Positions 14,483 through 64,000 of a stretch of 64,000 bases of DNA are shown here, in pieces. The position numbers and the translations under genes are program-made. Positions within the stretch are counted from its first letter, which is position 1, and each line of letters begins with the position of its first letter. Below the pieces are notes generated by a model that did no database searches, was not told the DNA's origin, and saw only the letters and a list, made by a program, of their open reading frames with translations. The DNA is from Ramlibacter sp. (GTDB taxonomy: Bacteria; Pseudomonadota; Gammaproteobacteria; Burkholderiales; Burkholderiaceae_C): contig NZ_JBFWNP010000030.1 in assembly GCF_050250995.1 (NCBI RefSeq), forward strand, positions 367 through 64,366. The letters are read 5' to 3'.

Positions 14483-14506
14483 AGGTTCTCTATCTCGGCA
14501 TCCTGA

Positions 14507-21105: not shown

Positions 21106-21148
21106 TTTTTTTGTCGTGGCGTGATGAAGAAAAAGGGATGCGGCGGAG

Positions 21149-21176
21149 ATTTGCGGGCCACCCCGCGATTTTCAAG
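21149..21176 (-). promoter_or_regulatory. Probable sigma32 promoter of htpG
   Basis: Minus strand cTTGAAA-N13-CCGCAAAT versus consensus TTGAAA-N13-14-CCCCATNT. Confidence 0.5.
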
Positions 21177-21271
21177 CCGGCGCGGTCGAGTTGCGGCAGC
21201 GTGACAAATATGACGTGGACGGGTCGATTTCCCCGATTGTGCGCCGAGCCCTGTTGGACAAGGAATGACAA

Positions 21272-21517
21272 GTGGTTACAGTACAGGCCGTGAACCCGAA
21301 TCCTTCCGTGACCATCAAGCGCGTGCGGCGGCCCGCAGCGGCGGCGTCGCTCACGTTGACGCTGCATCAGCTGGCTGTCGCGCAAGTGATCGCCGCGGAC
21401 GCCCTGCCCACGGAGTTCGGGCGGATCGCGGTGCGGGCGGAAGTCGAAGCGGAGCCCATCCGTACGCCGATGCCGGGCGCGGGCTTCACGCCACTGCTGC
21501 TGACGCTGACGTTCTAG
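21272..21517 (+). CDS. Small hypothetical protein (81 aa)
   Basis: AAGGA SD 8 nt before GTG; fills the gap between divergent htpG and the convergent response regulator. Confidence 0.5.
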   Translation: MVTVQAVNPNPSVTIKRVRRPAAAASLTLTLHQLAVAQVIAADALPTEFGRIAVRAEVEAEPIRTPMPGAGFTPLLLTLTF

Positions 21518-21539
21518 GGACCCGGCCAGACCGCCGGGG

Positions 21540-22184: not shown

Positions 22185-22188
22185 GGAT

Positions 22189-42835: not shown

Positions 42836-44965
42836 CTAGAAGCCGCTTTCGCGGACGAGGACCTGCAGGCCGCGGCGCGTTGCCGCTGCGAGCGAATCGA
42901 GGGGTCCCGTTGGCACCACGAGCCGGCCTGCCAGCACGGCGCCCGGCGCCCGTCCCGGTATCTGCACGTCAACCTGGTACAGCGTCTCCTTGAGCTGCCA
43001 TTCGCCGCGCGCGCTCTGCGTCGCGATCAGGTCGCCGCCGTGGTGCGCATCGAGCAACTGGTGCGGCAGCACGCGCGTGCCCGTGGTGTCGATGCGCACC
43101 ACCTTGCCCTCGACACGCGGCCGCTCGGGCAGGTTCGGCACGAAGGTGACTTCGGTGCCGACGGCGAGCCGGCGGACCTGCGTCTCGGACACCCACGCCC
43201 GCACCTGGCCCTGTTCGATGTCGACGAGCCGGCCCAGCAGCCGGCGCGGGTTGATCCAGCGGCCGGGCGCGATGTCCGTCGGGACGTCGACCAGGCGCCC
43301 CGCGTGCGCGCTGCGGATTGTGAGCCGCTCGAGCTCGTCGGCCACCGCGCGCTGCTCGGACACGGCCTGTTCGAGCTCCTCCTGCAGCACGAGGGCGCGC
43401 TCGCGGTTGCGGTCGCTCGCCGGAATGCGCGCGAGTTCGGCGCGGTTGCGCTCGATGCGCACCGCCGCCGCCTGCCCCCGGAAGTAGAGATCGGGCGCCT
43501 GCAGCTCGAGCAGCAGCTGGCCCGCCTTGACGACCTGTCCGTCTTCCACATGCACGGCCGCCACCTGCGCCGGCGTGGCGGCGTAGATGCGGGTTTCCTC
43601 GCCCGCCAGCCATAGCGCGGGCGCGCGCGATTCGCCGGACCACGCGAGCAGTGTCGCGGTGCCGCCCAGCAGCGCGAGGATCGCGATCAGTCGCCCCCAG
43701 CGCGGTCGCGCCCGGGCGCGATCCTTCCACACGGCCCGCGCCTCGCTCCAGACCGGCCGCGCGAGGAACCAGACCAGTTCGACCGCCATGAGCAGGATGC
43801 CCAGCGCCTTGAAGAAGGCGAAGTACACGAGCGCGGCGATGCCGAGGAAGACGATCGCGCGATAGGCCCAGGTGACGTAGGCAAAGCCGATCAGGAAGCG
43901 CCGCATGCCCGCGCCGAAATGTTCCGGCGCCGGCACGTCGATGCCCCACAGCTGCTTGCGCATCCACCACTTCGCCAGCGCGCCGCTGCGCTCGTGCAGG
44001 TTGGGGAAGTCGAGCGCGTCCGAGAGCAGGAAGTAGCCGTCGAAGCGCATGAACGGGCTCGCGTTGATCGAGATCGTGAGAATCAGCGAGGTGGTGGCCA
44101 GGAAGAAGAGCGCGGCGCGCAGCGCGCCCGGCGGCGCGAGCGTCCACAGGAACAGGCAGACCAGCGCGATGCTCAGCTCGGTGGCGACGCCGGCGGCGGC
44201 GATGCGGAAGCGGGCGCGATGGTCTTCGAGTTTCCAGCTGTCGCTGGTGTCCGTGTAGAGCATCGGCCACAGCACGAGGAAGGCCAGGCCCATCACCGGC
44301 ACCCGCACGCCATGATGGCGCGCGACGAACGCATGCCCCAGCTCGTGCAGGACTTTGGCGAACGACGCCGCGACGGCGGAGGCGATGAGCCCGTCGATCG
44401 TGAACAGCCCCGCGAACGACTGCGTGAACTCGGTCCATTCGCGCGCCACGGCGAACGGCGTGAGGATCGCGAGGACGACCAGCGCCACCTTGACCGGCGT
44501 CGACACGAGCAAGCGCGCCCACGGCAGCATGCGCTCGAGCCAGGCATCGGGCCGCACGAGCGGCAGGCGGAAGAAGAGGTAGTGGTGCAGCAGCCAGACG
44601 AGCCAGTGCTGGTGCCCGCGCCGCCACAGCTCCAGCAGCACGGCGTAGTCGCCGCTGTGCCCCGCGGCCACCAGCTGGTGGCGCAGCAGGAATTCGCGCA
44701 GCGCGAGCACTTCCTCGACGTCCACGTCGACGCCCAGCTGCTCGCCGGCGCGCGCCGCGATGTCGGCCGGCGTCGCGCCCGCCTGCCACTGGGCGAGCAT
44801 CTCGACGTCGAAGGTGCCGAGCTCGAAGTAGCGGTTGCGCAGCGGGTCGTGGATGCGAAAGCGCGGCGAGCCGTCGCGGAAGATGCCCACGCGCTGCACG
44901 TGCAGGTCTTCGCGCAGCCCCGGCAGGGCCATCTGCGCGGGATTCAGCCCCATGGTGAAGGCCAT
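42836..44965 (-). CDS. Site-2 protease (M50)-like membrane protein with C-terminal HlyD/biotinyl-lipoyl-like domain
   Basis: HELGH, NASPFMRFDG, multiple TM helices, then VEDGQVVKAGQLL and coiled coil. Confidence 0.85.
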   Translation of the reverse strand: MAFTMGLNPAQMALPGLREDLHVQRVGIFRDGSPRFRIHDPLRNRYFELGTFDVEMLAQWQAGATPADIAARAGEQLGVDVDVEEVLALREFLLRHQLVAAGHSGDYAVLLELWRRGHQHWLVWLLHHYLFFRLPLVRPDAWLERMLPWARLLVSTPVKVALVVLAILTPFAVAREWTEFTQSFAGLFTIDGLIASAVAASFAKVLHELGHAFVARHHGVRVPVMGLAFLVLWPMLYTDTSDSWKLEDHRARFRIAAAGVATELSIALVCLFLWTLAPPGALRAALFFLATTSLILTISINASPFMRFDGYFLLSDALDFPNLHERSGALAKWWMRKQLWGIDVPAPEHFGAGMRRFLIGFAYVTWAYRAIVFLGIAALVYFAFFKALGILLMAVELVWFLARPVWSEARAVWKDRARARPRWGRLIAILALLGGTATLLAWSGESRAPALWLAGEETRIYAATPAQVAAVHVEDGQVVKAGQLLLELQAPDLYFRGQAAAVRIERNRAELARIPASDRNRERALVLQEELEQAVSEQRAVADELERLTIRSAHAGRLVDVPTDIAPGRWINPRRLLGRLVDIEQGQVRAWVSETQVRRLAVGTEVTFVPNLPERPRVEGKVVRIDTTGTRVLPHQLLDAHHGGDLIATQSARGEWQLKETLYQVDVQIPGRAPGAVLAGRLVVPTGPLDSLAAATRRGLQVLVRESGF

Positions 44966-44969
44966 TTCA

Positions 44970-45045
44970 GTGCCGCCCGGCCGCCCGAAGGCACTGAGAA
45001 GCCCCCTCGGGGGGCACCGGACCGCGCGAAGCGGGGGAGCGTGGC
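44970..45045. repeat. Burkholderiales-type dispersed palindromic repeat
   Basis: GCCGCCCGGCCGCCCGAAGGC...GCCCCCTCGGGGGGCA...CGCGAAGCGGGGGAGCGTGG; resembles an element I recognise from Comamonadaceae intergenic DNA. Confidence 0.55.
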
Positions 45046-45057
45046 GGCTGTCTCACT

Positions 45058-46383
45058 TCAGAACCCCAGCATGCGCCGCGCGGTCGCGAACGGCCGGCGG
45101 AAGATGTAGTAGCCGAGCGGCACGGTGTCGCCATAGATCTTGGCCGAGCCGCGCACGCCCAGGCGCGGCGCCTGCGTGCCTCGCTCGAATTCGGCGCGCA
45201 GCACGTAGGCGAGGCCTGCATCGACCGTGTTCTCCGCCTCGTAGCCGATCAGGACGATGGTGGCGGTGAGCGTGTCCAGCGGCGAGATGTTCTGATAGAA
45301 CTGCACCTCGCTGCCGACGCGGATGTCGATGAGATCCTCCGCGGGCAGATGCAGCGTGAGGCCGGCCAGCGCGGGGTTCGCGACGGTCGCGATGCGCTCG
45401 CCGGTCACGAGCGGCCGGCCGATCCATTCGTCCGCGCTCGTGTACGTCACGAGCCCGTCGATCGGCGCCTTGAGCTGCACGCGGCCCAGCAACTCCTCGT
45501 TGTAGGCGAGTTCGGCCTGCTTTTCGTCCATGCGCGCCTTCAGCGTCAGCAGTTCCGAGCGGCTCTGGTCGTCGCCGAAGGCCTTGGAGCCGGCGCGCGC
45601 GTACTCGGCGCGCGCGATTTCGAGACCCTTGCTGGCGACCGCGAAGCGGTTGCGCACGACCGTATCGTCGATGGACGCGACGACGGTGCCCGCCTTCACC
45701 ATGGTGTTGGGCGGGACATGGAAGCGGGCGAGCACGCCGTCGACGGGCGCGGCGATGGCGGCGGGATCGAGCGGCGTCACCTCGGCCGGCGCGACGGCCG
45801 TGAGGCGCACCGGGATCGCCATGAGGCCGGCGATGACGAGGATCGAGATCAGCAGCGCGCTGCGCGAACCGCGCAGGCGCTGGCCCAGCCGCTCGCGCCA
45901 GCCCCGGCCTTCCCACGCCGCGAGCACCAGCGCCACCTGGCGCGACGCGAGCTGCAGCAGCGCGACGCCCTGCGCGGGCAGGGGCTCTTCGAACGCCACC
46001 AGCAGCCAGCCGAGCAGGCCGCCCGAGGGCGACACGAGCCGGCACAGCACCGCCTGCTCGGGCAGCCATTCGGCCCAGTCGCGAGCGAGCGCTTCGGGCA
46101 CGTCCTCGACTGTGAACGCGGCCACCGGCTGGTCGCCCGCGTGCTTCACGAGCTGCGTCAGCCACTGCGCGAAGGGCGCGTTCTCGTCGACTTCGGAGAG
46201 ATGCGAGACGGCCGCGATGCGCACCTTGCGCACCGCGTCGGGCTTGAGCAGCACCGCGAGGCGGTGCGGCATGACGGTGCCCAACCGGTTGGCGGCGACG
46301 AAGCCCGCTTCGGCGGCGGAGTGCGCCCCCACCAGTTCGGCCTCGAAGCGCAGCAGTGCCTGAGCAGGATCGGCGGCTTCCAT
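45058..46383 (-). CDS. GAF-like + HlyD-family periplasmic adaptor
   Basis: N-term GAF-like domain, TM helix, IAAPVDGV, LKAPIDG, GERIA. Confidence 0.85.
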   Translation of the reverse strand: MEAADPAQALLRFEAELVGAHSAAEAGFVAANRLGTVMPHRLAVLLKPDAVRKVRIAAVSHLSEVDENAPFAQWLTQLVKHAGDQPVAAFTVEDVPEALARDWAEWLPEQAVLCRLVSPSGGLLGWLLVAFEEPLPAQGVALLQLASRQVALVLAAWEGRGWRERLGQRLRGSRSALLISILVIAGLMAIPVRLTAVAPAEVTPLDPAAIAAPVDGVLARFHVPPNTMVKAGTVVASIDDTVVRNRFAVASKGLEIARAEYARAGSKAFGDDQSRSELLTLKARMDEKQAELAYNEELLGRVQLKAPIDGLVTYTSADEWIGRPLVTGERIATVANPALAGLTLHLPAEDLIDIRVGSEVQFYQNISPLDTLTATIVLIGYEAENTVDAGLAYVLRAEFERGTQAPRLGVRGSAKIYGDTVPLGYYIFRRPFATARRMLGF

Positions 46384-46388
46384 CGGCA

Positions 46389-47285
46389 CTAGCGCGCGCC
46401 GTCGAACACGGCCTTGCCGATCATCCCGGGGAGCACGTTGACCGGCACCCTGTCGAAGCGGCCGGTGACCTCCACGGTCTGGCTCGACCCGTCGATGCGG
46501 CTGCTGATCTTGGCGATCTTCGCCCGGTAACTGCTCCCGGTCTCGTCCACGGTGAGCGTGAAATTCGCGCCGGGCTTGAGCCAGCGCAGCCACGCGGAGG
46601 GAACGAACAACTGCGCGCGCAGGCTCGCGGGATTGACGATCTCCAGCAGCGGCTGCCCCAGGTTCACCGACTCGAAGGCCTTGGCGCGCATGCGCACGAC
46701 CTTGCCCGGATAGGGCGCGTGCACCACGCAGTATTGCTCCTGGGTACGGGCGAGCTCGAGCTGCGAGCGCGCCTTCGCGGCCGCGGCCGCGGCCACGGTC
46801 ACGTCGAGGTCGCTCGCGGCGCCGAGGCTTTGCAGCTTGAGTCGCGCGAGGTGGGTCTCGCGCGCGCTCAGGAGCTCGGCCTGCGCCACCTTCACCGTGG
46901 CCTGCCGCTCCGAGCAGTCGAAGGCGGCGAGCAGTTCGCCCTGCTTGAAGCTGTCGCCGACCTGCTTGGGCATGCTGATCAGACGGCCGGCGAACTGCGA
47001 CGAGATCGTGGCTTCCATTTCGGCGACGACGAGCGCGCGCACTTCACCCGGGCCAGCGATCGGCACCCCGAGCGTGGCCGGGGCCGGGACGGGAATGGCC
47101 GTCGGCGCCGCCACCGAATCGGCGGGGGCGATGGCGCGCGGCGGGCGCAGCGGCAGCGGCTGCACCTGGCCCGGCGGCGCCGGGCGGGGCGGCGTCTGCG
47201 CCAGGACGGCGGCAGCCGACAGGCCCAGCGTCGCAACGGCGGTCCAGCGCGCGAAGACCCGGTACATCAGGAAATTATTCGGCAT
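46389..47285 (-). CDS. Efflux RND/HlyD periplasmic adaptor subunit
   Basis: Signal peptide + Pro-rich linker, TISSQFAGR, VHAPYPGKV, RIDGSSQT, LPGMIG. Confidence 0.88.
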   Translation of the reverse strand: MPNNFLMYRVFARWTAVATLGLSAAAVLAQTPPRPAPPGQVQPLPLRPPRAIAPADSVAAPTAIPVPAPATLGVPIAGPGEVRALVVAEMEATISSQFAGRLISMPKQVGDSFKQGELLAAFDCSERQATVKVAQAELLSARETHLARLKLQSLGAASDLDVTVAAAAAAKARSQLELARTQEQYCVVHAPYPGKVVRMRAKAFESVNLGQPLLEIVNPASLRAQLFVPSAWLRWLKPGANFTLTVDETGSSYRAKIAKISSRIDGSSQTVEVTGRFDRVPVNVLPGMIGKAVFDGAR

Positions 47286-47311
47286 TCCTTGGCGAAAGAC
47301 TGAGGCGCGCT

Positions 47312-49309
47312 TCATCGCGCCGTGGATGGCAAAAACCGAGGGCCCGACCACGACCGATCGAGCTTCAGAGCGCCGCCCTCCGTCATCGTGAGCGTATCCC
47401 GCGGGATCGCGGGCCGCGCTCCGATGAGCTGGCGCAGATTTTCGGCGATCTTGAAGATCGCGGCTTCTCCAAGCACTTTCCACTGGTCGCGCGTCACGGG
47501 GTCGAGCAGCATCGAATTCATCTGGACCACGTGCAGCATGTTCCCGCTCGAGCCGTCCGCCAGCGTGATCTTCAGCGTCACCGGCCGGCCGGCGTCCTGG
47601 CGCGGGCCCAGCTTCACCGCCACGTCGGCCTCGATCGCGGGGGTCTTCTGCACCACCGGCACCTGCATGACGCGCATCACGGTCACCATCGATTCGGTGA
47701 AGTCCCCGAGCATGTCGTTCGGAACGCCGACGATGGCCCCGACGCCCACCGTGCGCAGCGCCTGGCCCGCCTGCGTGATGAAGTGGGCGTCCGCGAACTT
47801 GCCGAAGGCGGCATCGATCTGGTTGGCGAGCGTCGGCGTTTCGTCGGCGTTCGTCTCCGCGTTGACCACATCGTAGCCCACCGAGTTCATCACGCGCCCC
47901 AGCGAATGTTCGAGGTTGGCGTGGATCACGTCGCGGCTGATCTCGGTCACGGTCACGCGGGCGCCCGCGCGGATGAGTTCGAGCTCGGTCTCCAGCCCCG
48001 ACTGCTGCGTCGATTGCAAGGCCCGCAGCAGCGCGCGGTCGTCGGCCAGCGCCTGGTTCCAGATGCCCAGTTCGTGCTTGAGCAGGTCGTAGCGCGTGAC
48101 GGCCACGCGCGTCTGCGCCATCACCGCCATCGTGAGCGCTTCGCGCCGCGCCTTGTCCAGCTCCTCGGCGGCCTGCTGGGTGCGCTTCATCGCGGGCAGC
48201 GAGAGCAGCTTGAGCAGGTTGAAGCTCACGAGGCTGGTCAGCTCGCTCCACTGGTTGTTGACCAGGAAACGGTTGCTGTCGTAGTTGGAGCCGACGTTCA
48301 GGTTGATGCCCGGCAGCAGCGACAGGAGCTGGCGCCTGCCTTCGTCCTGCGTGATACGGATGCGCAGGCGTTCCTCGGCGAGCTCGGGCCGGCGTTCGAG
48401 CGCCATCGCCTCCAGGTCGTCGGCACGCGTCGCAAGATCGGGCAGCGGCGGGAGCACGCCCTGCGGCGGGCTGACGACCCGGTAGTTCTCGCCCGGCCGC
48501 AGTCCCACGAGTTCGGCGAACTCGGCACGCCATTGCGCGAGCTCCTGCCGGCGCGCGCTCAGCTGCTGCTGCAGGTCGAGCAGGGAGCGGCGGTACGCGA
48601 TGATCTGCAGTGGCGGCATCAGCCGGCGCGCCTCGATCAGCCGCGACCGCTCCGCCGAGCGGTCGATCTGCTCTAGCATCGCGTCGATCTGCGGCAGCAG
48701 GCGTTGAGCAGCCTCGGCGCGCCACCAGGCCAGCCGGACGTCGAGCACGAGGTTCTGCAGCGCGCGGCGGCGGCGCTCCTCGGCGATCAGCACCTGGTCG
48801 GCGTTCTGCCGGGCGCGGTAATAGGACAGCCCGAAGTCGAGGACGCTCCAGCTGAGGGCCGCGTTGGCCGTGCTGTGCACCCGCTCCGTGGCGGCGGAGG
48901 GCGTGGAAGAAATCGTGCCGTCGGGCTGATAGCCCACGCCGAATGCATCGTTGCTGCGCCAGTTGTACCCGGCGGAAAGCGCCAGCCGCGGAAGCATGTC
49001 GTAGCGCGAGAGGTCGAGATTCGACGACTGCACCATCGCCTCCATCTGCCGCACGCGCACTTCGAGGTTGTTGCGCATCGCGCGCGCCGTCGCCTCGGAC
49101 AGCGTGAGGGGTCCCTTGAGCGGCTCGAGCCTGTCGATGATCGACGCGAGATCCTTCTGCGCCTGAGACGAGTTCTCCTGAAGCGTCAGCGGCTTCGGTG
49201 TCAGGGCGCAGGCCGCGAGCGCCGACGCCAAGGCGGCGGCTGCGGCCACCCGTCCCGCACGCCCCAGGGGCGACGCCCGAACGGAACGGGGTGCTTCTTC
49301 ACTCGGCAA
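47312..49309 (-). CDS. TolC-family outer-membrane protein with C-terminal extension
   Basis: Lipobox LAAC; LTLSEATARAMRNN, LSWSVLDFGLSY, RRPEL; about 130 extra C-terminal residues. Confidence 0.88.
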   Translation of the reverse strand: MPSEEAPRSVRASPLGRAGRVAAAAALASALAACALTPKPLTLQENSSQAQKDLASIIDRLEPLKGPLTLSEATARAMRNNLEVRVRQMEAMVQSSNLDLSRYDMLPRLALSAGYNWRSNDAFGVGYQPDGTISSTPSAATERVHSTANAALSWSVLDFGLSYYRARQNADQVLIAEERRRRALQNLVLDVRLAWWRAEAAQRLLPQIDAMLEQIDRSAERSRLIEARRLMPPLQIIAYRRSLLDLQQQLSARRQELAQWRAEFAELVGLRPGENYRVVSPPQGVLPPLPDLATRADDLEAMALERRPELAEERLRIRITQDEGRRQLLSLLPGINLNVGSNYDSNRFLVNNQWSELTSLVSFNLLKLLSLPAMKRTQQAAEELDKARREALTMAVMAQTRVAVTRYDLLKHELGIWNQALADDRALLRALQSTQQSGLETELELIRAGARVTVTEISRDVIHANLEHSLGRVMNSVGYDVVNAETNADETPTLANQIDAAFGKFADAHFITQAGQALRTVGVGAIVGVPNDMLGDFTESMVTVMRVMQVPVVQKTPAIEADVAVKLGPRQDAGRPVTLKITLADGSSGNMLHVVQMNSMLLDPVTRDQWKVLGEAAIFKIAENLRQLIGARPAIPRDTLTMTEGGALKLDRSWSGPRFLPSTAR

Positions 49310-49329
49310 ACTCGGTTTCCTTCTCCGTG

Positions 49330-55300: not shown

Positions 55301-58300
55301 CTGCGGCTGCCCGCGCTGCTCACGTTGCCTGCGGCATCGGTGGCCGTCGCGCTGACCGTGTAGGTGCCGTCGGCGGGAAGGTCTCCGCTCGCGAAGTTGC
55401 GTGTCCAGACGCCCGACCCGTCGGCCGTCGTCGTGAGCGTGGTGCCGCCGAAAGTGACGGAGACCGTCGCGTCGGCCTCGGCCGTGCCGCTGAGCGTGAC
55501 GCCCGCGGTCTTCTCCGCGGCATTGACGACGTCGTCGGTGGCGATGGCATTCAGCGCCGGTGCGCCTGGCGCGCCGGTGTCGATGGTGATCGCGCGCGTG
55601 ACGGTGCCGCTGACGTTGCCCGTCGTGTCCGTCGCGGTGACGCTGATCGTCTCGGCGCCCTCGCCCATCGCCGCGATATCGGCGGGAACGAGCGTGTAGG
55701 ACCAGTCGCCGTTCGCATCCGCCGTGAACGTGCGCACGTTGCCGATGCCGAGCGTGAGGTTCACCGTCGCGTTCGCTTCGGCCGTGCCGGTGATGACGCT
55801 GGCGGTCTCGCCGGCATTGACGATGTCGTTGCCCGCGACGACGTTGATCGCCGGTGCGCCGGGGCCGCCCGTGTCCACGGTGACGCTGCGCGTGCCCGCG
55901 CTGCTCACGTTGCCGGCGGCATCGGTCGCGGTGACGCTGACCGTGTAGGTCCCATCGGCAGGGATCTGCGCCGCGGTGAAGGCGCGGCTCCAGTTGCCGG
56001 AACCGTCGGCCGTGGTCGTCAGCGTCGTGCCGCCGAACACGACCGAGACGGCGGCGTTCGCTTCGGCCGTGCCGGCGATGGTGATGCCCGACGTCTTCTC
56101 CGCATCGCTCACGAGGTCGTCGCCCGCGACGACGCCCACGACCGGCGCGACCGGCGTGCCGGTGTCGATGCCGATTGACCTCGTAGTAGCGCCGCTGACA
56201 TTGCCTGCGGCATCGGTGGCCGTGACGCTGATCGTCTCCGCGCCCTGGCCCATGGCCGTGATGTCGGCGGCGACGAGCGTGTACGTCCAGTCGCCGTTCG
56301 CATCCGCCGTGAACGTGCGCACGTTGCTGCCGAGCGTGAGGCTGATCGTCGCGTTCGCTTCGGCCGTGCCCGTTATCGCGCTGCCGGCCTCGGCCGCGTT
56401 GATCACGTCGTTGCCGGCCACGACGTTGATCGTCGGCGCATTGGGTCCGCCCGTGTCGACGGTGACACTGCGGCTGGCGCTGCTGCTCACGTTGCCGGCG
56501 GCATCGGTCGCGGTGACGCTGACCGTGTAGGTGCCGTCGGCGGGAATCTGCGCGCTGCTGAACGCCTGGCTCCAGTTGCCGGCGCCGTCCGCGGTCGTCG
56601 TGAGCGTCGTGCCGCCGAAGGTGACGGCGACCGATGCGTTGGCCTCGGCCGCGCCCGTCAGCGTCAGGCCGGCCGACTTCTCGGCGGCGCTCACGTTGTC
56701 GTCGGCGGCGACCGCGCCGATGGACGGCAGGCCCGGCGTGCCGGTGTCGATGCTGATGGCGCGCGTCGTCGCCGCGCTCACGTTGCCCGCGGCGTCGGCC
56801 GCGGTGGCGCTGATCGTCTCGGCGCCCTGGCCCATGGCCGTGATGTCCGCGGCGACGAGCGTGTAGGTCCACTGGCCGCTGCCATCGGCCGTGACGGTGC
56901 GCACATTGCCCGAGCCGAGCGTGAGGCTGACCGTCGCGCCCGCTTCCGCGGTGCCGGTGATGGCCGAACCGGCCTCGCCCGAGTTGATGACGTCGTTGCC
57001 GGCCACGACGTCGATCACCGGCGTGCCGGGCGTGGCCGTGTCGACGGTCACGGATCGCGTGCCCGCCAGGCTCGCATTGCCGGCGGCGTCCGTGGCGGTG
57101 ACGCTCACCGTGTAGGTGCCGTCGACAGGAATCTGCGCCGGCGTGAACGCCTGGCTCCAGTTGCCCGAACCGTCGGCCGTCGTCGTGAGCGTCGTGCCGC
57201 CGAAGGTGACGGAGATGGCGGCATTGGCTTCGGCTGTACCGGAGAGCGTGAGTCCCGCCGTCTTCTCGGCGGCATTCACGAAGTTGTCTCCCGACACGGC
57301 ATTGACGACGGGTGCGCCCGGCGTCGCCGTATCGAGCGTGATCGCACGCGTGCCCGCGCTGCTCACGTTCCCCGCGGCATCGGTGGCCGTCGCGCTGATC
57401 GTCGCGGCGCCCTGGCCCAGCGCCGTGATATCGGCGCCGACGAGCGTGTACGTCCACTGGCCGCTGCCATCGGCTGTCACCGCGCGCACGTTGCCCGTGC
57501 CCAGCGTCAGGTTTACGGTCGCGTTCGCCTCGGCCGTGCCGGTGATGGCGCTGCCGGCTTCGGCGGCGTTGATCTCGTCGTTGCCCGCGACCAGGTCGAT
57601 GACCGGAGCGGCCGGCGGCGTGAGGTCCACCGTGACGCTCGTCACCGGGCTCAGGCCACCCACGTTGTTCGCGGAATCGATCACCCGGCCCGTCACGTTG
57701 AACGTGCCCGCACCTTGCGCGGAGACGACCGCATTCGACACGTTCACCGTCGCGGTACCCGCCGTCACGTCGCCGGAAGTGACCGTGTAGTCCACGATCT
57801 GCGTGCCCCAGAGGACCCGGACCGTGTCCCCGGCAACCGCGTTCGTGCCCGCGAGGCTCACGGCGACATCCGTTCCGTCTGCCGCCTCCGCGGCGTTGAT
57901 GCCTCCGCCCGCGTTCTCCGCGATGGTCGGCGCGCTGCCCGGCGCATTCGGCCCGGCGAGCGCGACCGTGACGCTCGTCGGCGCGCTCGCCGCACTCGCA
58001 TTGCCCGCGGCGTCGACGACCTGGGTCGTCACGTTGAAGGTGCCGTTGCCTTGTGCCGTGATCGTCGTGTCGGGCACGGTGACCGAGGCGCTGCCGCCGC
58101 TCACGTCGCCCGCGGTCAGCGTGTACGTGTAAGTCTGCGCGCCCCAGTTGATGCGCAGGGTGTCGCCAGCCGTCGCATTGGTTCCGGTGAGATCGACGAC
58201 CGCCACCGTCCCGTCCGCGGCCTCGATGGAGTTGATGCCACCGCCCGCGTTCTCGGCAATGGCGGGCGCGCCCGGCGTGCCCGGGGCCGTCGCGTCGACG

Positions 58301-61300
58301 GTCACCGTGCGCGTGCCGGCACTGCCAGCGTTGCCGGCGGCGTCGGTTGCGGTGACGCTGATCGCGTGGTTGCCGTCGGCCGGAACCTGAGGGGCCCCGA
58401 ACGTCCGGCTCCAGTTGCCGTCGTTGCCGGCGGTGGCGGTGAGCGTCGTGCCGCCGAAGGTGACGGCCACCGTGGCGTTCGCTTCCGCGGTGCCGGCGAT
58501 GGTCACGCCGGCCTGCTTCTCGGCCGCATTGATCACGTCGTTCGCCGCAACGAGGCCGATGGTCGGCAGGCCCGGCGCGACCGTGTCGATGGTGATCGCG
58601 CGCGTGCCCGCGGCGCTCGCGTTGCCGGCCGCATCGGTGGCCACGGCGCTGATCGTCTCGGCGCCTTCCGCCATGGCGGCGATGTCGCCCGCGACGAGCG
58701 CATAGCTCCAGTCGCCATTGACGTCCGCGACCACCGTGCGCACGTTGCCCGTGCCCAGGGTGAGCGCAATCGATGCGCCGGCTTCGGCGGTGCCGGTGAT
58801 CGTCGATCCGGCTTCCGCCGCATTGACGACGTCGTCGCCGGCGACCACCGCGATGACGGGCGCGCCGGGCGCGCCGGTGTCGACCGCGATCGTCACGCTG
58901 CCGGCCCCGCCGTTGTTGCCCGCGGCATCGGTGTAGGCGCCGACCGCGACGGTCACGCCCGCGCTCGCATTGGTGGCGTTCGCCGCTGGCGTGAACGTCG
59001 CCGTGTAGACCTTCGGATCCCCGGTGCTCGCGAAGTTTGAAATCGTGCCGTCCGTCGCGGCGATGTCGCCCGCCACGAAGTCGAGCGGCGCTTCGCTGAA
59101 CGTGAACGTCAGCGTGGCCGTTTCGCCGTTGCCGACGCTGGACTTGCTGCTCGCGATCGAGAGCGTGGGCGCGGTCGTGTCGACCTTGTAGGCCGCGTCG
59201 TCGGTGACCGCGCCGTGCGTGAGCGTCGCGTCGTTGCCCGAGGCGTCCCTGAGCGCGCCCGCATTGAGCGCCAGCGCGTTCGCCGCGATCGCGATGCCGT
59301 TCGCATCCGTGTCGCCGGCCTGCACCGTGTACGCGAACGTCAGCGTCGTCGTGCCGCTGCCGCCCGTGTAGCTCGCCGCGCGGCTGTCCGCGCCCACGTT
59401 CAACGCCAGTTGCGGCGTGCCCGTCACGTTGGTGGCTTCGCTCATCGTCACCGTGACGGTGACCACGTCGCCCGCGTTCAGCGTGCTCGCCTGCGCACCC
59501 GTGGCGCTGGTGATCGCCACGCCCGTGACCGTCGGGCCGCCCGCGTCCACCGTGATTGCGCCCAGTTGCGCCGCCGTGCCCACGTTGCCCGCCGCATCGG
59601 TCTGCCGCACCTGCACCGCGTTGGCCGCATACGTGCCCGCGCCCAGCGTGAAGCTGCCGCCCGTGCCGGCCGTCCACGCGCCGCCGCCGTTGGTGCTGTA
59701 CTGCCACGTCGCGCCGGCCTCCAGCCCGCTCACGTCCACCTGGCCGTTGCTCGTGACGCCGTCGCTGTTGCTCGCGCCCGTGTCGCTCGCCAGCGCCGCC
59801 GTCGGCGCGTTCGGCGCCGTCGTGTCCACCTTGTACGCCGCGTTGTCGCTCGCCGCGCCATGCGCGAGCGTCGCGTCGTTGCCCGAGGCGTCCCGGAGCG
59901 TGCCCGCATTGAGCGCCAGCGCGTTGGCCGCAATGGCGATGCCGTCGATGTCCGTGTCGCCCGCCTGCACGGTGTAGCTGAACACCAGCGTCGTCGCCGT
60001 GCTCGCGCCCGCGTCGTACGTGGCCGTGCGCGCGTTCGATCCCACCTGCAGCGCCAACTCGGGGCTGCCCGTCACGGTCGTGGTTTCGCTCATCGTCACC
60101 GTGACGGTGACCACGTCGCCCGCGTTCAGCGTGCTCGCCTGCGCACCCGTGGCGCTGGTGATCGCCACGCCCGTGACCGTCGGGCCGCCCGCGTCCACCG
60201 TGATCGCGCCCAGCTGCGCCGCCGTGCCGACGTTGCCCGCCGCATCGGTCTGCCGCACCTGCACCGCGTTGGCCGCATACGTGCCCGCGCCCAGCGTGAA
60301 GCTGCCGCCCGTGCCGCTCGTCCACGCGCCGCCGCCGTTGGTGCTGTACTGCCACGTCGCGCCGGCCTCCAGCCCGCTCACGTCCACCTGGCCGTTGCTC
60401 GTGACGCCGTCGCTGTTGCTCGCGCCCGTGTCGCTCGCCAGCGCCGCCGTCGGCGCGTTCGGCGCCGCCGTGTCCACCTTGTACGCCGCGTTGCTCGTCA
60501 CCAGGGCATGCGTCAGGCTCGCGCCGACGCCGCCGGTGTCGCGGATCGTGCCGCCATTGAGCGAGATGGCATTGGTGCCGATGGAGATGCCGTCGAGGTC
60601 CGTCTCGCCCGCCTGGATGGTGTACGTGAAGACCAGCGTGCTGCCGCCCGACCCGCTCGCATACGTCGCGTTGACGGTCGTACCGCCGATTTGGAGCGCG
60701 ACCGAGGGGGCACCGCCCGTCGTGTCCACGAGCGTGTCTTCGCTCATCGTGACGGTGACGTTGACCACGTCGCCCGCATTCAGCGTGCTGTTCTGCGCCC
60801 CCGCGGCGCTCGTGATCGCGACCGAGGCCACGGTCGGCGCGCCACCGTCCACGACATACGGAATCGCGTTGCTGGCCTGACCGCTCGCATTGCCCGCGGC
60901 ATCGAGTTGCCGCACCCGCACCTCGCCACCCGAATAGGTTCCGTCGCCCAGCGTGAACGTGGTGCCCGAACCGGTTGCCCAGTCGGTGCCGCCATTGATC
61001 GAGTACTCCCACGTGGCGCCGGGTTCGATGCCGCCGACGGTGATCTCGCCGTTGCTCGTGACACCGTCGGCGTTGTCGGTGCCCGTGTCCGCGGTCAAGC
61101 CCATGGTCGGCGTGGCCGGGGCGGTGGTGTCGACCTTGTAGCTGGCATTGTCCGAAACGCTGCCGTGGCCCAGCGCCAGGTCGTTGCCCGCGCCGTCCTT
61201 CAGCGTGCCGCCGTTCGCGGCCAGCGCATTGCCGCCGATGGAAATGCCGTTGGCATCGGTGTCGCCGGCCGCGATCGTGTACTCGAAGACGAGGCTCGTC

Positions 61301-64000
61301 GTGCCGGAGCCGCTCGCGTAGGCCGCGATCCGGCTTTGCCCTCCAACGTCGAGCGTCAGCTGCGGATTGCCCGTGACCGTCGTCGCTTCGCTCATCGTGA
61401 CGGTGACGCTGACCTTGTCGCCCGCGTTCAGGGTGTTCGCCTGCGCGCCCGTCGCGCTCGTGATCGCCACGTTCGTGACCGTCGGCACCGTGCTGTCGAT
61501 CGTCACCGTGTTGGCCGATGCCGCGCTCACGTTGCCCGCGGCATCCACCGTGTACACCTTGTAGGTGCCGTCGATCAGCCCGGTGGCCGCCAGCGCCGTG
61601 TCCGCGTTCGCGCTTGCGATGGCGACCGCATTCCACACGTTGCCCGCCGCGTTCACGATGCTCGCTTCGTCCGTCACCGTCACGCTCGACGCCACCAGGT
61701 AGGCCGTGCCCGGCTCGCTGGACTGCACCAGCACCTCACCCGTGTTCGCGACCGTCGCCGCCGTCACGCTCGCCGTGGGCAGGCCGCTGTCGACCTTGTA
61801 CGCCGCGTTGTCGCTGGCCGCACCGTGCGTGAGCGTCGCGTCATTGCCGGACGCGTCCTTCAGCGTGCCCGAACCGAGGGACAGCGCATTCGCGGCAATC
61901 GCGATGCCGTTCGCGTCCGTGTCGCCGGCCTGCACCGTGTAGGCGAACGTCAGAGATGTCGTGCCGCTGCCGCCGGTGTAGCTTGCCGTGCGGCCCGTGC
62001 CGCCGACGTCCAGCGTGATTTCCGGCGTTCCCGTGACGGTCGTGGCTTCGCTCATCGTCACCGTCACGGTGACGACGTCGCCCGCGTTCAGCGTGCTGTT
62101 CTGCGCGCCCGTTGCGCTGGTGATCGCGACTCCGGCGACCGTGGGTCGCGCGGTGTCGACCGTGAGCGTGACCGTGTTGTTCGCATCCGCACCGTCGGTG
62201 TTCAGGTTGCCCGCGGCATCCGTGAACTTGCTGCTCGCCACGCTGATCGTGCCGTTGGCCGTGCTGTCCGCCGTCGGCGTGAACGTCGCCGTGCGCGTGA
62301 GGCCCGTGCCGCTCAAGGTGCCCAGCGTGCCGCCGCCCACCGCGATGTCGCTCGCGTCGAAGCTCGACCCCGGGTCTTCGCTGAACGTGAAGGTGATCGT
62401 GGCCGTCTCGCCGGCCTTCAAGGTCGCCGCATTGCTCGTGATGGCAATGGTCGGACGCTCGGAGTCGATCGTGAGCGTCACCGTGTTGTTGGCGTCGCCA
62501 CCGTCGGTGTTCAGGTTGCCTGCGGCGTCCTCGAACTTGCTGCTTGCAACGCTGATCGTGCCGTCGGCTGTGCTTCCTGCGGTCGGCGTGAATGTCGCGG
62601 TCCGCGTCAAGCCCGTGCCGCTGAGCGTCCCGAGCGTGCCGCCGGATACCGCGATGTCCGTGGCATCGAACGTCGCGCCCGGGTCTTCGCTGAACGTGAA
62701 GGTGATGGTCGCCGTCTCGCCCGACTTCAGCGTCGCCGCGTTGGTGGTGATCGCGACCGTCGGGCGTTCGGAGTCGATCGTCAGCGTGACCGTGTTGTTC
62801 GCGTCGCCGCCGTCGGCGTTCAGGTTGCCTGCGGCATCCGTGAACTTGCTGCTCGCCACGCTGATCGTGCCGTTGGCGGTGCTGTCCGCCGTCGGCGTGA
62901 ACGTCGCCGTCCGCGTGAGGCCCGTGCCGCTGAGCGTGCCCAACGTGCCGCCGGTCACCCCAATGTCGCTCGCGTCGAAGCTCGAACCCGGGTCTTCGGT
63001 GAAGGTAAACGTGATCGTCGCCGTCTCGCCCGCTTTCAGCGTCGCTGCGTTGCTGGTGATCGCCAACGTCGGCCGTTCGGAGTCGATCGTCAGCGTGACC
63101 GTATTGTTCGCGTCGCCGCCGTCGGTGTTCAGGTTGCCCGCGGCATCTTCGAACTTGCTGCTCGCCACGCTGATCGTGCCGTTGGCGGCGCTGTCCGCCG
63201 TCGGCGTGAACGTCGCGGTGCGCGTCAGGCCTGTGCCGCTGAGCGTGCCCAGCGTGCCGCCGCTCACCGCGATGTCGCTCGCGTCGAAGCTGGAGCCCGG
63301 GTCTTCGCTGAAGGTGAAGGTGATCGTCGCCGTCTCGCCCGCTTTCAGCGTCGCTGCGTTGCTGGTGATCGCCAACGTCGGCCGTTCGGAGTCGATCGTG
63401 AGGGTGACCGTGTTGTTGGCGTCGCCGCCATCCGCGTTCAGGTTGCCGGCGGCGTCCTCGAACTTGCTGATCGCCACGCTGATCGTGCCGTTGACCGTGC
63501 TGTCCGCCGTCGGCGTGAAGGTCGCCGTGCGCGTCAGGCCCGTGCCGCTCAGCGTGCCCAACGTGCCGCCGCTCACCGCGATGTCGGTGGCGTCGAAGGT
63601 CGCACCCGGGTCTTCGGTGAACGTGAAGGTGACCGTCGCCGTCTCGCCCGCCTTCAAGGTTGTGGCGTTGCTCGTGATGGCAACGGTCGGACGCTCCGAA
63701 TCGATCGTCAGCGTGACCGTGTTGTTCGCGTCACCGCCGTCGGTGTTCAGGTTGCCTGCGGCGTCCGTGAACTTGCTGCTCGCCACGCTGATCGTGCCGT
63801 TGGCTGTGCTGTCGGCCGTCGGCGTGAAGGTCGCCGTCCGCGTCAGACCCGTGCCGCTCAGCGTGCCCAGCGTGCCGCCGCTCACCGCGATATCGGTCGC
63901 GTCGAACGTCGCGCCTGGGTCTTCGCTGAAGGTGAAGGTGATGGTCGCCGTCTCGCCGGCCTTCAGCGTCGTTGCGTTGCCGGTGATCGCCAACGTCGGC
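49330..64000 (-). CDS. Giant repetitive surface adhesin (bacterial Ig-like, SwmA-type, cadherin and He_PIG-like domains); 5' end outside window
   Basis: Uninterrupted 4,887+ codon frame, T/A/G/V-rich, DAAGN-type repeats, DxxxNAAE motifs, cadherin-like DVDDEAP, LPxWLxFD domains. Confidence 0.93.
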   Translation of the reverse strand, partial: PTLAITGNATTLKAGETATITFTFSEDPGATFDATDIAVSGGTLGTLSGTGLTRTATFTPTADSTANGTISVASSKFTDAAGNLNTDGGDANNTVTLTIDSERPTVAITSNATTLKAGETATVTFTFTEDPGATFDATDIAVSGGTLGTLSGTGLTRTATFTPTADSTVNGTISVAISKFEDAAGNLNADGGDANNTVTLTIDSERPTLAITSNAATLKAGETATITFTFSEDPGSSFDASDIAVSGGTLGTLSGTGLTRTATFTPTADSAANGTISVASSKFEDAAGNLNTDGGDANNTVTLTIDSERPTLAITSNAATLKAGETATITFTFTEDPGSSFDASDIGVTGGTLGTLSGTGLTRTATFTPTADSTANGTISVASSKFTDAAGNLNADGGDANNTVTLTIDSERPTVAITTNAATLKSGETATITFTFSEDPGATFDATDIAVSGGTLGTLSGTGLTRTATFTPTAGSTADGTISVASSKFEDAAGNLNTDGGDANNTVTLTIDSERPTIAITSNAATLKAGETATITFTFSEDPGSSFDASDIAVGGGTLGTLSGTGLTRTATFTPTADSTANGTISVASSKFTDAAGNLNTDGADANNTVTLTVDTARPTVAGVAITSATGAQNSTLNAGDVVTVTVTMSEATTVTGTPEITLDVGGTGRTASYTGGSGTTSLTFAYTVQAGDTDANGIAIAANALSLGSGTLKDASGNDATLTHGAASDNAAYKVDSGLPTASVTAATVANTGEVLVQSSEPGTAYLVASSVTVTDEASIVNAAGNVWNAVAIASANADTALAATGLIDGTYKVYTVDAAGNVSAASANTVTIDSTVPTVTNVAITSATGAQANTLNAGDKVSVTVTMSEATTVTGNPQLTLDVGGQSRIAAYASGSGTTSLVFEYTIAAGDTDANGISIGGNALAANGGTLKDGAGNDLALGHGSVSDNASYKVDTTAPATPTMGLTADTGTDNADGVTSNGEITVGGIEPGATWEYSINGGTDWATGSGTTFTLGDGTYSGGEVRVRQLDAAGNASGQASNAIPYVVDGGAPTVASVAITSAAGAQNSTLNAGDVVNVTVTMSEDTLVDTTGGAPSVALQIGGTTVNATYASGSGGSTLVFTYTIQAGETDLDGISIGTNAISLNGGTIRDTGGVGASLTHALVTSNAAYKVDTAAPNAPTAALASDTGASNSDGVTSNGQVDVSGLEAGATWQYSTNGGGAWTSGTGGSFTLGAGTYAANAVQVRQTDAAGNVGTAAQLGAITVDAGGPTVTGVAITSATGAQASTLNAGDVVTVTVTMSETTTVTGSPELALQVGSNARTATYDAGASTATTLVFSYTVQAGDTDIDGIAIAANALALNAGTLRDASGNDATLAHGAASDNAAYKVDTTAPNAPTAALASDTGASNSDGVTSNGQVDVSGLEAGATWQYSTNGGGAWTAGTGGSFTLGAGTYAANAVQVRQTDAAGNVGTAAQLGAITVDAGGPTVTGVAITSATGAQASTLNAGDVVTVTVTMSEATNVTGTPQLALNVGADSRAASYTGGSGTTTLTFAYTVQAGDTDANGIAIAANALALNAGALRDASGNDATLTHGAVTDDAAYKVDTTAPTLSIASSKSSVGNGETATLTFTFSEAPLDFVAGDIAATDGTISNFASTGDPKVYTATFTPAANATNASAGVTVAVGAYTDAAGNNGGAGSVTIAVDTGAPGAPVIAVVAGDDVVNAAEAGSTITGTAEAGASIALTLGTGNVRTVVADVNGDWSYALVAGDIAAMAEGAETISAVATDAAGNASAAGTRAITIDTVAPGLPTIGLVAANDVINAAEKQAGVTIAGTAEANATVAVTFGGTTLTATAGNDGNWSRTFGAPQVPADGNHAISVTATDAAGNAGSAGTRTVTVDATAPGTPGAPAIAENAGGGINSIEAADGTVAVVDLTGTNATAGDTLRINWGAQTYTYTLTAGDVSGGSASVTVPDTTITAQGNGTFNVTTQVVDAAGNASAASAPTSVTVALAGPNAPGSAPTIAENAGGGINAAEAADGTDVAVSLAGTNAVAGDTVRVLWGTQIVDYTVTSGDVTAGTATVNVSNAVVSAQGAGTFNVTGRVIDSANNVGGLSPVTSVTVDLTPPAAPVIDLVAGNDEINAAEAGSAITGTAEANATVNLTLGTGNVRAVTADGSGQWTYTLVGADITALGQGAATISATATDAAGNVSSAGTRAITLDTATPGAPVVNAVSGDNFVNAAEKTAGLTLSGTAEANAAISVTFGGTTLTTTADGSGNWSQAFTPAQIPVDGTYTVSVTATDAAGNASLAGTRSVTVDTATPGTPVIDVVAGNDVINSGEAGSAITGTAEAGATVSLTLGSGNVRTVTADGSGQWTYTLVAADITAMGQGAETISATAADAAGNVSAATTRAISIDTGTPGLPSIGAVAADDNVSAAEKSAGLTLTGAAEANASVAVTFGGTTLTTTADGAGNWSQAFSSAQIPADGTYTVSVTATDAAGNVSSSASRSVTVDTGGPNAPTINVVAGNDVINAAEAGSAITGTAEANATISLTLGSNVRTFTADANGDWTYTLVAADITAMGQGAETISVTATDAAGNVSGATTRSIGIDTGTPVAPVVGVVAGDDLVSDAEKTSGITIAGTAEANAAVSVVFGGTTLTTTADGSGNWSRAFTAAQIPADGTYTVSVTATDAAGNVSSAGTRSVTVDTGGPGAPAINVVAGNDIVNAGETASVITGTAEANATVNLTLGIGNVRTFTADANGDWSYTLVPADIAAMGEGAETISVTATDTTGNVSGTVTRAITIDTGAPGAPALNAIATDDVVNAAEKTAGVTLSGTAEADATVSVTFGGTTLTTTADGSGVWTRNFASGDLPADGTYTVSATATDAAGNVSSAGSRSVTVDTTAPSAPGTAPAIAENGGGGINATEAADGTPVVVDLTGTGAVAGETLRINWGSQTFNYTLTSGDVTGNSATVTVPEATITAQGTGTFNVTTQLVDSVGNASAASAATSVSVVLAGPVAPAGAPTVSENAGGGISAAEAANGTPVVVNLGGTNAVAGDTLRINWGAQVVDYTLTSGDIAGSSATVIVSQATIAAQGAGTFGVTSRVVDAANNVGGVSAATSVTVDLTAPAAPTIATIAGDDAIDASEAGSAIAGTAEAGATVSLTLGAGNVRTVTADGSGNWTYTLVAADIMAMGQGTETISVTAADATGNVSPATTRTITIDTDVPGTSTIAVVAGDDRIAASEKTAGVTISGTTEANASVSIAFGSTTLTTTADASGQWSQAFTSAQIPADGTHTVSVTATDTSGNVGATVTRSVVVDTGLPSAPVVTAVAGDDRVSASEKAAGIEIGGTAEANASISVTFGGTTLTTTADGSGNWSRTFTSAQIPADGSYTVSVTATDAAGNVSSAGTRAITVATGAPGAPSIDIVAGNDVVNAAEAGSTITGTAGSNASVALTLGSGNTRTVTADGSGQWSYTLVAADLTAMGQGTETISAVATDTDGNVSAAGTRTITIDTAAPGVPTLGSVAANDVIDATEKAAGVTVIGTAEANATVSVTFGSTTLTTTADGSGNWSRAFASAQIPADGTYTVSVVATDAAGNPSAAATRTVTVDTAAAPDTTPPTAPTLAMSADTGTSASDGTTSNGLMQVGGLETGATWQYSVDSGATWTTGSGSAFTLASGQYAAGAVQVRQSDAAGNISVAASHPTAITIDTGAPTLASATANGSSIVLTYADSGSGLAAANPATGDFVVDVAGSARAVTAVNVDAVAGTVTLTLASAVDSGESVKVSYTPGANPLADVAGNVAAALVDRAVSNGSSDVTAPAAPTLDLVAASDSGASDSDNITADTTPTVRVTLAGSGAAAPVAGDVVRLFADGIEVASATLSATDITGGFVEITPTLTAGTRSMTATVTDAAGNASGVSPALAIVVDTSAPVLSAAHATGTTLVLTYTEAGGLAGTTPAAGDYTVKVGGAARGVDSVSVDAAAKTVTLTLASAVSGGDTITVGYAPGSSALVDLAGNTAVTFTDATVTNGAPPAPPPPPPPAPEPPPPPPPAPPPPAPAPDTPPVVAAGQLFEYNENSVAGDTVGDVTANDDVGVAAFRFTATGTTTSADGFFTIGNDGRVVLTAAGAASAANDFEATPNVFMYSVQAQDTKGQWSPAETFTLRVRDVDDEAPVIASGQVISYSENSAAGDALGWVTATDGGAVMAFRFADSGGNMSADGNFMISSGGQIRMTAAGAASAAVNDFETAPNEMTEMVQARDAAGNWSQAVAVRMRVLDVNDTAAPPPAPEPPPPPPAPAPEPPAPPPVEPPPPAPPPPAPPPVDNGGGGGAVVPPAPQPPAPPPPAPQPPAPPPPAPAPEPPAPPAPAPEPPAPPPPAPVPVPPPPAPVPEPPAPPPPAPVPVPVPPPPAPVTVPAPAPVVVPTAPVAAPIPAPVTIEQILQPTPTSASAEAPAPASPTLNTSTLTGPSTLTGGSGTLPNVARTIVAAPGAATGANAPAADVSTGIVTIQPVGTPAAASRVVEPVRTGFQAATPTTAGTSTGAPPPTAVTVLNGIPDLRASSNGVSFAIPSDAFAAGGTGIVTLEARQADGSPLPPWLVFDSTSGLINGRPETGPMPTLQLQIVASDDAGRQVRTNFAIVSDATRSGNLSTPLFSTVTATAPTFNVARVTPEQLGLARSPQGNDTLVRFEPITTQPTVTSGGFSITIPPSAFAHTSATATVQLEAGLANGQPLPNWVRFDAATGQITGQPPLGFNDLLQIRVVARDNNGLEASTQVNIQVGAGGNASLVPSVPGESADQRSTAPADPGQADAAFVDTSETAEAKDGENEDARKEEKPAKRAAAKFADQIRTAREQTPGRSDQALLARALDGQPAKRPPGGRAGA
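50690..51135 (-). repeat. Pro-rich low-complexity repeat (PPPAPEPP/PAPQPP)n; second short block at about 51800-51890
   Basis: Read from translation and GGCGGC-rich DNA. Confidence 0.9.
53150..58890 (-). repeat. 19 tandem Ig-like domains of three subtypes
   Basis: Order A B C C A B A B A B A B C C A B B A B (A: TLTLGxGNVRT; B: VTFGGTTLT...QIPADG; C: AENAGGGINA). Confidence 0.8.
59437..60508 (-). repeat. Near-identical internal duplication, offset 648 bp
   Basis: About 59437-59860 matches 60085-60508 almost base for base. Confidence 0.85.
62146..64000 (-). repeat. Six tandem 309-bp (103-aa) Ig-like repeats, probably continuing beyond the window
   Basis: ERPT.AITSN..TLKAGETATITFTFSEDPG...NNTVTLTIDS; period 309 measured at 63072/63381. 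Confidence 0.92.

Follow-up and report, generated by a model that had tools for sequence, protein, structure and literature searches.

A conserved five-gene module around a giant adhesin-like protein in Ramlibacter, with a leader-peptidase-like membrane adaptor and no ABC exporter gene beside it

We analysed a 64,000-nucleotide stretch of Ramlibacter sp. DNA (assembly GCF_050250995.1, contig NZ_JBFWNP010000030.1, positions 367 to 64,366), called here the window. Its minus strand at 42836-64000 consists of five co-oriented and tightly packed genes, encoding a giant adhesin-like protein, a TolC-like outer-membrane factor (OMF), a small periplasmic adaptor of the membrane fusion protein (MFP) kind, a second adaptor with a GAF-type fold and a third one fused to an RRE-like domain and an M50 protease-like membrane domain. 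These five genes form one conserved functional unit, with the giant as the dedicated partner of the module. It is moderately likely that the module is a dedicated, ABC-independent machine for the export and processing of the giant. Judged from the gene sequences, the locus is a SecA-less, OMF-linked member of a very large family of five-gene modules, a family known from genes alone.

Giant adhesin-like proteins belong to the largest proteins of bacteria, and ABC-driven type I secretion is the route by which they are thought to be exported. A preliminary description of the region had named an adhesin, a TolC protein and three adaptors in one orientation, and every item of this list is borne out by the open reading frames (ORFs) and by the Pfam, NCBIfam and fold data.

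Results

The five genes recur as a unit

A scan of one genome per species gave 80 loci, to which two close Ramlibacter genomes, plasmid and chromid records and two close metagenomic relatives were added, and the window's proteins were mapped onto all ORFs of these loci. Module genes are present in 85 loci and all four accessory genes in 55 of them. In 56/85, an ORF of 900 aa or more is found next to the module or within it, and nearly all the others have a contig end within 2 kb. Such breaks beside the modules are expected, because the giant genes are repetitive. At the contig cuts of L021 and L022, the start of a giant with the N-terminal tag described below is still visible.

The loci come from Beta-, Gamma- and Alphaproteobacteria and Desulfobacterota, and the same five families stand in at least five gene orders. 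The order giant, OMF, small adaptor, GAF-adaptor and M50-adaptor is found in the window, in other Ramlibacter, in Pseudomonas, Azospirillum and Cupriavidus and on E. coli plasmids. The giant is placed between the small adaptor and the GAF-adaptor, with the OMF first, in L078 and L088 and most likely also in L004 and L089, where the OMF is unseen because the contig starts within the small adaptor. Other orders are M50-adaptor, giant and OMF (L015 and L016), small adaptor, GAF-adaptor, M50-adaptor and giant (L083) and a divergent arrangement (L036 and L053). The recurrence of the five-family set in at least five orders across these taxa rules out chance adjacency. The earlier view of the five genes as one export locus for the giant is thereby confirmed as to the conserved unit, over 85 loci.

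The unit is also mobile. On a 69-kb IncFIA/FIB (IncF) plasmid of E. coli (L086; NZ_CP081687.1), it occupies 794-22923 between an IS5-family and an IS1 transposase gene (IS, insertion sequence) and comprises a 4,459-aa giant, a TolC protein and the three adaptors. Among the 5,426 complete E. coli genomes, 24 carry this cassette at 99% or higher identity, placed 21 times on a plasmid and 4 times on a chromosome. The accessory genes are also carried by Citrobacter and Hafnia plasmids. As a whole, the family amounts to 3,001 clusters at 50% identity (E<=1e-30).

No exporter-type ABC gene and no SecA gene at the locus

The preliminary description reported neither Walker A nor LSGGQ, and indeed none of the six frames of the 21-kb region contains either motif. 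The window's 49 kb downstream of the giant encode no exporter ABC ATPase, and the ABC proteins found there belong to TOBE-type and Liv-type importers. With two ABC queries, an ABC-like ORF was met within 5 kb of the module in a single one of the 85 loci, where it is unrelated and lies on the opposite strand. In the relative C. metallidurans CH34, no ABC gene was found within 20 kb on either side, including the 5 kb upstream of a complete giant of 3,750 aa. Neither an ABC exporter nor SecA is among the listed genes of the E. coli IncF cassette plasmid.

A sister variant on a Pontibrevibacter plasmid (L090) does bear a SecA-like protein. It has a giant of ~10,600 aa with the LEPR-XLL tag, a DUF3467 protein, a small adaptor, a GAF-adaptor whose GAF domain is seen directly by Pfam, an M50-adaptor labelled 'PqqD family' and a 661-aa protein with SecA_DEAD, PPXD and NBD2. 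When the SecA-like and DUF3467 proteins of this plasmid were used as tblastn queries, no match was obtained in the window or in 89 other loci, and the GEGKT motif is in no ORF. Because the locus and its relatives have no such match, the window is assigned to the OMF-linked variant that is locally without SecA.

In the plasmid records, SecA-like paralogues occur in replicons with a distant M50-adaptor subfamily, 24-29% identical to the window's, and there are none among the matches listed for the close subfamily. The claim of an ABC-less locus stands for exporter ABC genes in the window and beside the module in 84 of the 85 loci. The sister variant does encode a SecA-like motor in its operon.

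Canonical type I secretion systems (T1SSs) do exist in the genus. In Ramlibacter sp. PS4R-6 (L003, 5808-23986), a C39-ABC and an MFP are encoded directly upstream of a 4,661-aa RTX/He_PIG giant, so both kinds of giant-protein systems exist in Ramlibacter. The Ramlibacter giant P0125, which shares He_PIG, was rejected as a clue to a hidden ABC transporter, as it is a canonical RTX/T1SS substrate of a different system with its own C39-ABC and MFP.

The giants share motifs at both ends

The visible giant of the window is built of seven Big_12, 18 Big_13 and 15 Big_6 domains, SWM repeats, Pro-rich linkers, two He_PIG domains and a basic C-terminal tail. As was noted before, it has no GGxGxD motif, and RTX nonapeptides are missing across all its 4,889 aa. 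For five module-linked giants, the last 400 aa were compared with NCBIfam, and no T1SS C-terminal target domain was found.

The N-termini of the giants carry a common tag. A basic stretch is followed by [A]LE[P/Q/A/S]Rx[LMVI][FY]D[GA]A, typically ALE(P/Q)RxxFDGA, in all 23 giants with a visible 5' end. The pattern has 23 occurrences in the 3.4 million six-frame residues of all the loci, all near the N-terminus of module-linked giants and none elsewhere. It lies 20-300 residues into the stop-to-stop frame, and for 22 of the 23 the distance is 20-142 residues. The giants have no Sec- or Tat-type signal, the N-terminus being basic and then running into ALEPRxLFDGA with its charged residues. The giant of a distant module is named 'LEPR-XLL domain-containing protein' by PGAP.

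In most giants the tag is followed by DUF4347 (E 1.6e-50 in L085). Since L004 and L078 carry the tag without DUF4347, the tag is the constant element. In the alignment of the giants' N-termini (for example L015, 12236-13045), DUF4347 shows an invariant SHG ... (L/Y)GC pattern that resembles a His/Cys dyad. From this SHG...YGC pattern, DUF4347 might be a clan-CD-like protease. By sequence, its sole solved relative is chain G of PDB 9qpe, a 'DUF4347 domain-containing protein' (E 2.3e-6). A small DUF4347 protein, PA0256, has been reported as a putative Hcp-dependent effector of type VI secretion (PMC8262886).

The C-termini are also conserved. They carry [FL]-x-x-Q-[LIVMF]-[RK...], typically FS(E/D/A)QLR, at 14-46 residues from the end, with small residues before and a basic, Ala-rich tail after it. 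Its core pattern [FL]xxQ[LIV][RK], defined on the same sequences in which it was counted, is present in the last 60 residues of 42/44 module-linked giants, compared with an expectation of about 0.7% from its frequency in the remainder of these proteins. The other two giants have near-variants.

An RRE-like domain, an M50 protease-like domain and an adaptor in one protein

The 709-aa protein has a PqqD/RRE-like domain at residues 22-95, ~7 transmembrane (TM) helices in a site-2-protease fold and an adaptor at 445-709. Its N-domain is placed in the cytoplasm and its adaptor in the periplasm. The model of residues 1-445 reached pLDDT 89.1 and pTM 0.80. Structure models were built with alignments from the related loci, and the N-terminal parts of both longer adaptors were modelled because they are unrecognised by Pfam, which calls no PqqD in this protein and no GAF in the 441-aa adaptor.

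In the model, the RRE-like domain consists of strands 22-28, 34-40 and 45-49 followed by helices 51-58, 66-77 and 83-95. Foldseek matches it to PqqD (5sxy) and to TbiB1-leader (5v1u and 5v1v), with probabilities of 0.85-1.0 (at least 0.97 for 5sxy, 5v1u_A/B and 5v1v_A) and TM-scores by target of 0.57-0.72. TbiB1 is a leader-binding protein of lasso peptides, and the two entries are its complexes with the leader. The β2-β3 segment of the window's domain, IHDP.RN..F, is nearly invariant. In the distant member L090, Pfam PqqD exceeds its cut-off (24.1 vs 23.4), and distant members are called 'PqqD family peptide modification chaperone' by PGAP.

The membrane domain, which is helical, has a Foldseek match to 3b4r, the site-2 protease of M. 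jannaschii (E 2.5e-5), and scores 34.5 with Pfam Peptidase_M50 against a cut-off of 27.2. Residues 43-400 match the daptide_HExxH model (NF041824) with 131.6 bits and E 3.9e-38, which is below the equivalog cut-off of 300. The HExxH and NxxPxxxxDG motifs are invariant (Table 1). Because of these motifs and the N-terminal PqqD/RRE-like fold, the M50 domain is read as an active leader peptidase; from sequence and model, it looks like an active leader-peptidase-like enzyme and not just a pore.

Three unlike adaptors and an extended outer-membrane factor

All three adaptors are matched by HlyD_3 or HlyD_D23 in Pfam and NCBIfam. As the periplasmic parts are at most 21% identical pairwise, they are old paralogues. 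Their hairpins are short, ~55-62 residues, like those of RND/MacA adaptors and unlike that of the canonical T1SS HlyD. With type_I_hlyD, whose cut-off is 208, the adaptors score 15.7-19.8; the model that the small adaptor does pass is RND_mfp.

The GAF-adaptor has a cytoplasmic GAF fold at about residues 1-170, one TM helix at 176-194 and a periplasmic HlyD_3 adaptor. The AlphaFold model of its residues 1-240 has a pLDDT of 87.9, and all Foldseek matches of it in the PDB are GAF domains (E about 1e-6, probability 1.0).

Genes for cyclic di-GMP (c-di-GMP) turnover accompany some modules. A PAS-GGDEF-EAL gene directly follows the M50-adaptor gene in two metagenomic relatives (L004, 17252-19387; L089, 16547-18682), and a diguanylate cyclase is encoded on a cassette-bearing E. 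coli plasmid (L087, 8006-9388). This hints at nucleotide control, possibly involving the GAF domain.

The OMF has a lipobox, LAAC, at Cys34 and scores 34.8 with type_I_sec_TolC vs a cut-off of 225. Its C-terminal extension is kept at 48-57% identity in the modules of the Ramlibacter/Acidovorax clade, is weak in three others and is absent from the Pseudomonas versions. No Pfam domain was found in the extension, nor any match in a PDB sequence search.

Layout of the locus and other features of the window

The OMF gene starts with TTG 20 nt after the stop of the giant gene and is preceded by a Shine-Dalgarno-like sequence, GGAGAAGGA. The OMF and small adaptor genes overlap in ATGA, and gaps of 5 and 92 nt follow. 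The 92-nt spacer between the GAF-adaptor and M50-adaptor genes was considered as an internal terminator, as has been proposed for M. extorquens, and rejected, as it folds no better than its shuffles (z = -0.08). Promoter and terminator scans gave chance level only.

The contig is 64,763 nt in all and ends ~760 nt past the window, so the N-terminus of the giant is lost. Matches to the locus sequence were found in metagenome DNA runs only (landfill).

Table 1. Genes and sequence features of the module in the window
Feature	Position	Strand	Details
Giant cargo gene, 3' part	49330..64000	(-)	>4,889 aa; ORF 49330..63999, 5'-open
Second He_PIG of the giant	around 50214	(-)	
Last He_PIG (dystroglycan-type Ig-like) domain	49645..49914	(-)	directly before the tail
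FADQIR, C-terminal motif of the giant	49435..49452	(-)	position -40
TolC-like outer-membrane factor (OMF/OEP)	47312..49309	(-)	665 aa; OEP E 3e-30
OMF C-terminal extension	47315..47860	(-)	~180 aa
Small periplasmic adaptor (MFP)	46389..47315	(-)	308 aa; RND_mfp 102.6 bits; signal-peptide-like N-terminus
GAF-TM-adaptor	45058..46383	(-)	441 aa; GAF fold, TM helix, HlyD_3
RRE-M50-adaptor fusion	42836..44965	(-)	709 aa; Peptidase_M50, HlyD-type adaptor
HELGH, zinc-binding/catalytic motif	44333..44347	(-)	residues 207-211; H207, E208 and H211 invariant in 74 sequences
NASPFMRFDG (NxxPxxxxDG), third-ligand motif	44036..44065	(-)	residues 301-310; N301, P304, D309 and G310 invariant in 74 homologues

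Elsewhere in the window, a low-GC island at 12414-16345 (+) (0.58-0.59 vs about 0.67) holds anti-phage defence genes. They encode PDC-M11A (487 aa, E 3e-132, with a C-terminal EVE domain), PDC-M11B (164 aa, E 1.5e-38) and a Drt4-type defence reverse transcriptase (566 aa, E 1e-179). The ordinary genes on the minus strand at 19219-25206, none of them visibly connected with the module, encode HtpG (Hsp90), a LuxR-type response regulator and a 1,005-aa hybrid histidine kinase (PAS-HisKA-HATPase-REC-Hpt).

Discussion

Earlier description of the module

The accessory module has been described in silico before. Kamneva, Poudel & Ward (PLoS One 2015; PMC4452313) found genes for M50/HlyD, HlyD and GAF/HlyD proteins, and in some cases for OEP, in the neighbourhood of a truncated 'secondary SecA_DEAD'. 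In their proposal, SecA_DEAD acts as the ATPase and the M50 protein forms an inner-membrane pore replacing the ABC transporter; they called the role 'completely unknown' (PMC4452313). The words 'giant', 'adhesin' and 'cargo' are absent from their text, and the RRE and the terminal motifs are unmentioned (PMC4452313).

The distinct pathway that the preliminary description put forward was therefore anticipated by that paper. Its idea of the M50-like domain as the inner-membrane component was also already there (PMC4452313), and it needs amending in that the domain looks to be more than a pore, the protease motifs and the RRE fold being intact. The accessory module and the M50 idea are already in print; what that paper does not contain is the link to a cargo, the RRE and the motifs at the two ends of the giants.

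A mechanism of export and processing

Our preferred reading, held with moderate confidence, is that the five-gene module is a dedicated ABC-independent export and processing machine for the giant. The three adaptors and the OMF would form an envelope-spanning duct for it. The cytoplasmic RRE is predicted to bind and read the N-terminal ALE(P/Q)RxxFDGA tag, and the M50 site would then clip the tag, in the manner of a peptidase-containing T1SS exporter minus the ABC domains. The C-terminal [FL]xxQ[LIV][RK] tail may be a further element for recognition or retention, perhaps one that serves the GAF domain. Export might be powered in trans by a SecA-type ATPase, unlinked or housekeeping, or by the folding of the Ig-like repeats outside the cell.

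Several points weigh against this machine. The locus encodes no known inner-membrane protein channel and no ATPase, and a monomeric S2P fold does not make a pore for proteins. The window's giant is without its N-terminus, so its tag is taken from relatives, and the nearest complete giants, P0122 and P0124, are 50-55% identical to it in the C-terminal region. NCBIfam LEPR-8K, a model of 24 positions, scores 16.2-16.4 vs its cut-off of 17 in two of the eight giants and leaves the others unmatched. The post hoc origin of the C-terminal pattern also counts here. In the literature, we found no experimental work on the module, only the 2015 study and incidental mentions.

Alternative readings

A bolder form is that the five genes alone make a distinct Gram-negative secretion pathway needing neither an ABC transporter nor a dedicated motor, which we consider unlikely. 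The nascent giant would be caught by its tag on the RRE, clipped by M50 and threaded N-terminus first, possibly co-translationally. Its path would run through a ring of RRE-M50-adaptor and GAF-adaptor subunits and then through the adaptor/OMF duct. The Ig-like repeats folding outside would pull the giant out, and the C-terminal tail might remain as an anchor, in the cytoplasm or bound to the duct, that GAF reads.

The module could instead be chiefly a device for retention, release and signalling, a functional analogue of LapD/LapG, with the giant crossing the inner membrane otherwise and a GAF-controlled M50 protease shedding or maturing it. The intact protease adjoining a ligand-sensor-type GAF domain would suit such a role, as would the c-di-GMP genes beside some modules (L004, L089 and the E. 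coli plasmid) and the conserved C-terminal tail of the giants. However, giants devoid of a Sec- or Tat-type signal do not fit it, three adaptors and an OMF are parts of a duct rather than of signalling, and the SecA-type translocation motor of the sister variant includes a preprotein-binding domain. We regard the device as improbable.

Quite improbable is also a purely accessory module, which would supply the outer-membrane channel, the extra adaptors and the processing protease to a canonical T1SS of HlyB-type ABC and HlyD encoded elsewhere. T1SS genes can be unlinked, and one Ramlibacter genome has a canonical C39-ABC/MFP pair beside another giant, an RTX protein. But the module's giants have neither RTX repeats nor the T1SS C-terminal target domain, and the adaptors have short RND/MacA-like hairpins and type_I_hlyD scores of 15-20 bits vs 208. 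Moreover, on E. coli plasmids the five genes move together between IS elements with no ABC gene in the unit, and no ABC gene stands beside the module in 84/85 loci.

That the four accessory genes serve efflux or export of small, RiPP-like peptides and are only incidentally adjacent to the giant is highly improbable, as the nearness of the M50 domain to the daptide leader peptidase model (131.6 vs a cut-off of 300) and the KEGG-style name 'putative peptide zinc metalloprotease' are outweighed by a giant adjacent wherever the flank is present in five gene orders and four classes, a tag confined to these giants and an operon without small precursor or RiPP-modifying genes.

Significance

If a leader-binding membrane protease indeed replaces the ABC transporter, the export and processing machine would be an unrecognised major secretion route, with ~3,000 clusters in several proteobacterial classes, and the LEPR-XLL tag, so far unexplained, would get an explanation. 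The IS-bounded cassette of the E. coli plasmids makes the export idea directly testable in a laboratory host. The gain from the window itself is modest, since it is one more instance with the N-terminus of the cargo missing, but it adds the C-terminal motif and a clean contrast between the SecA-less and SecA-bearing variants.

Comparison with known systems

Giant adhesins are secreted by T1SSs such as LapBCE for LapA, with LapD/LapG, and SiiCDF for SiiE, and MpIBP is another example. The module resembles them in that a giant repetitive Ig-like surface protein, membrane-fusion-type adaptors and a TolC-family channel are encoded in one operon, and its protease and sensor domains are possible parallels of LapG/LapD. 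It differs in lacking an ABC transporter, RTX repeats and any known T1SS C-terminal domain, and in having three distinct short-hairpin adaptors and a conserved N-terminal tag.

In the peptidase-containing ABC transporters, for example CvaAB-TolC, an inner-membrane protease within a TolC-coupled exporter recognises and cuts the leader. The same logic of leader recognition and cutting is proposed for the module. Its protease, however, is an M50 metalloprotease, putatively guided by the RRE, in place of a C39 cysteine protease; ABC TM and ATPase domains are absent, and the cargo is thousands of residues long.

The RiPP leader peptidases, such as daptide MpaP (NF041824) and the YydH type, have an HExxH membrane protease and a PqqD-like N-domain in common with the window protein. 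Unlike MpaP, the window protein is fused to a periplasmic adaptor, scores 131.6 against the cut-off of 300 and has no RiPP precursor or tailoring genes around it.

Also close is the module of Kamneva and coworkers, which has the same three adaptor families, M50-HlyD, GAF-HlyD and small HlyD/biotin-lipoyl, and the same OEP as the window. A truncated SecA_DEAD is present there, whereas the window and its 85 closest relatives are without SecA_DEAD or DUF3467 near the module. Conversely, the OEP is optional in their locus and always present in the window's variant.

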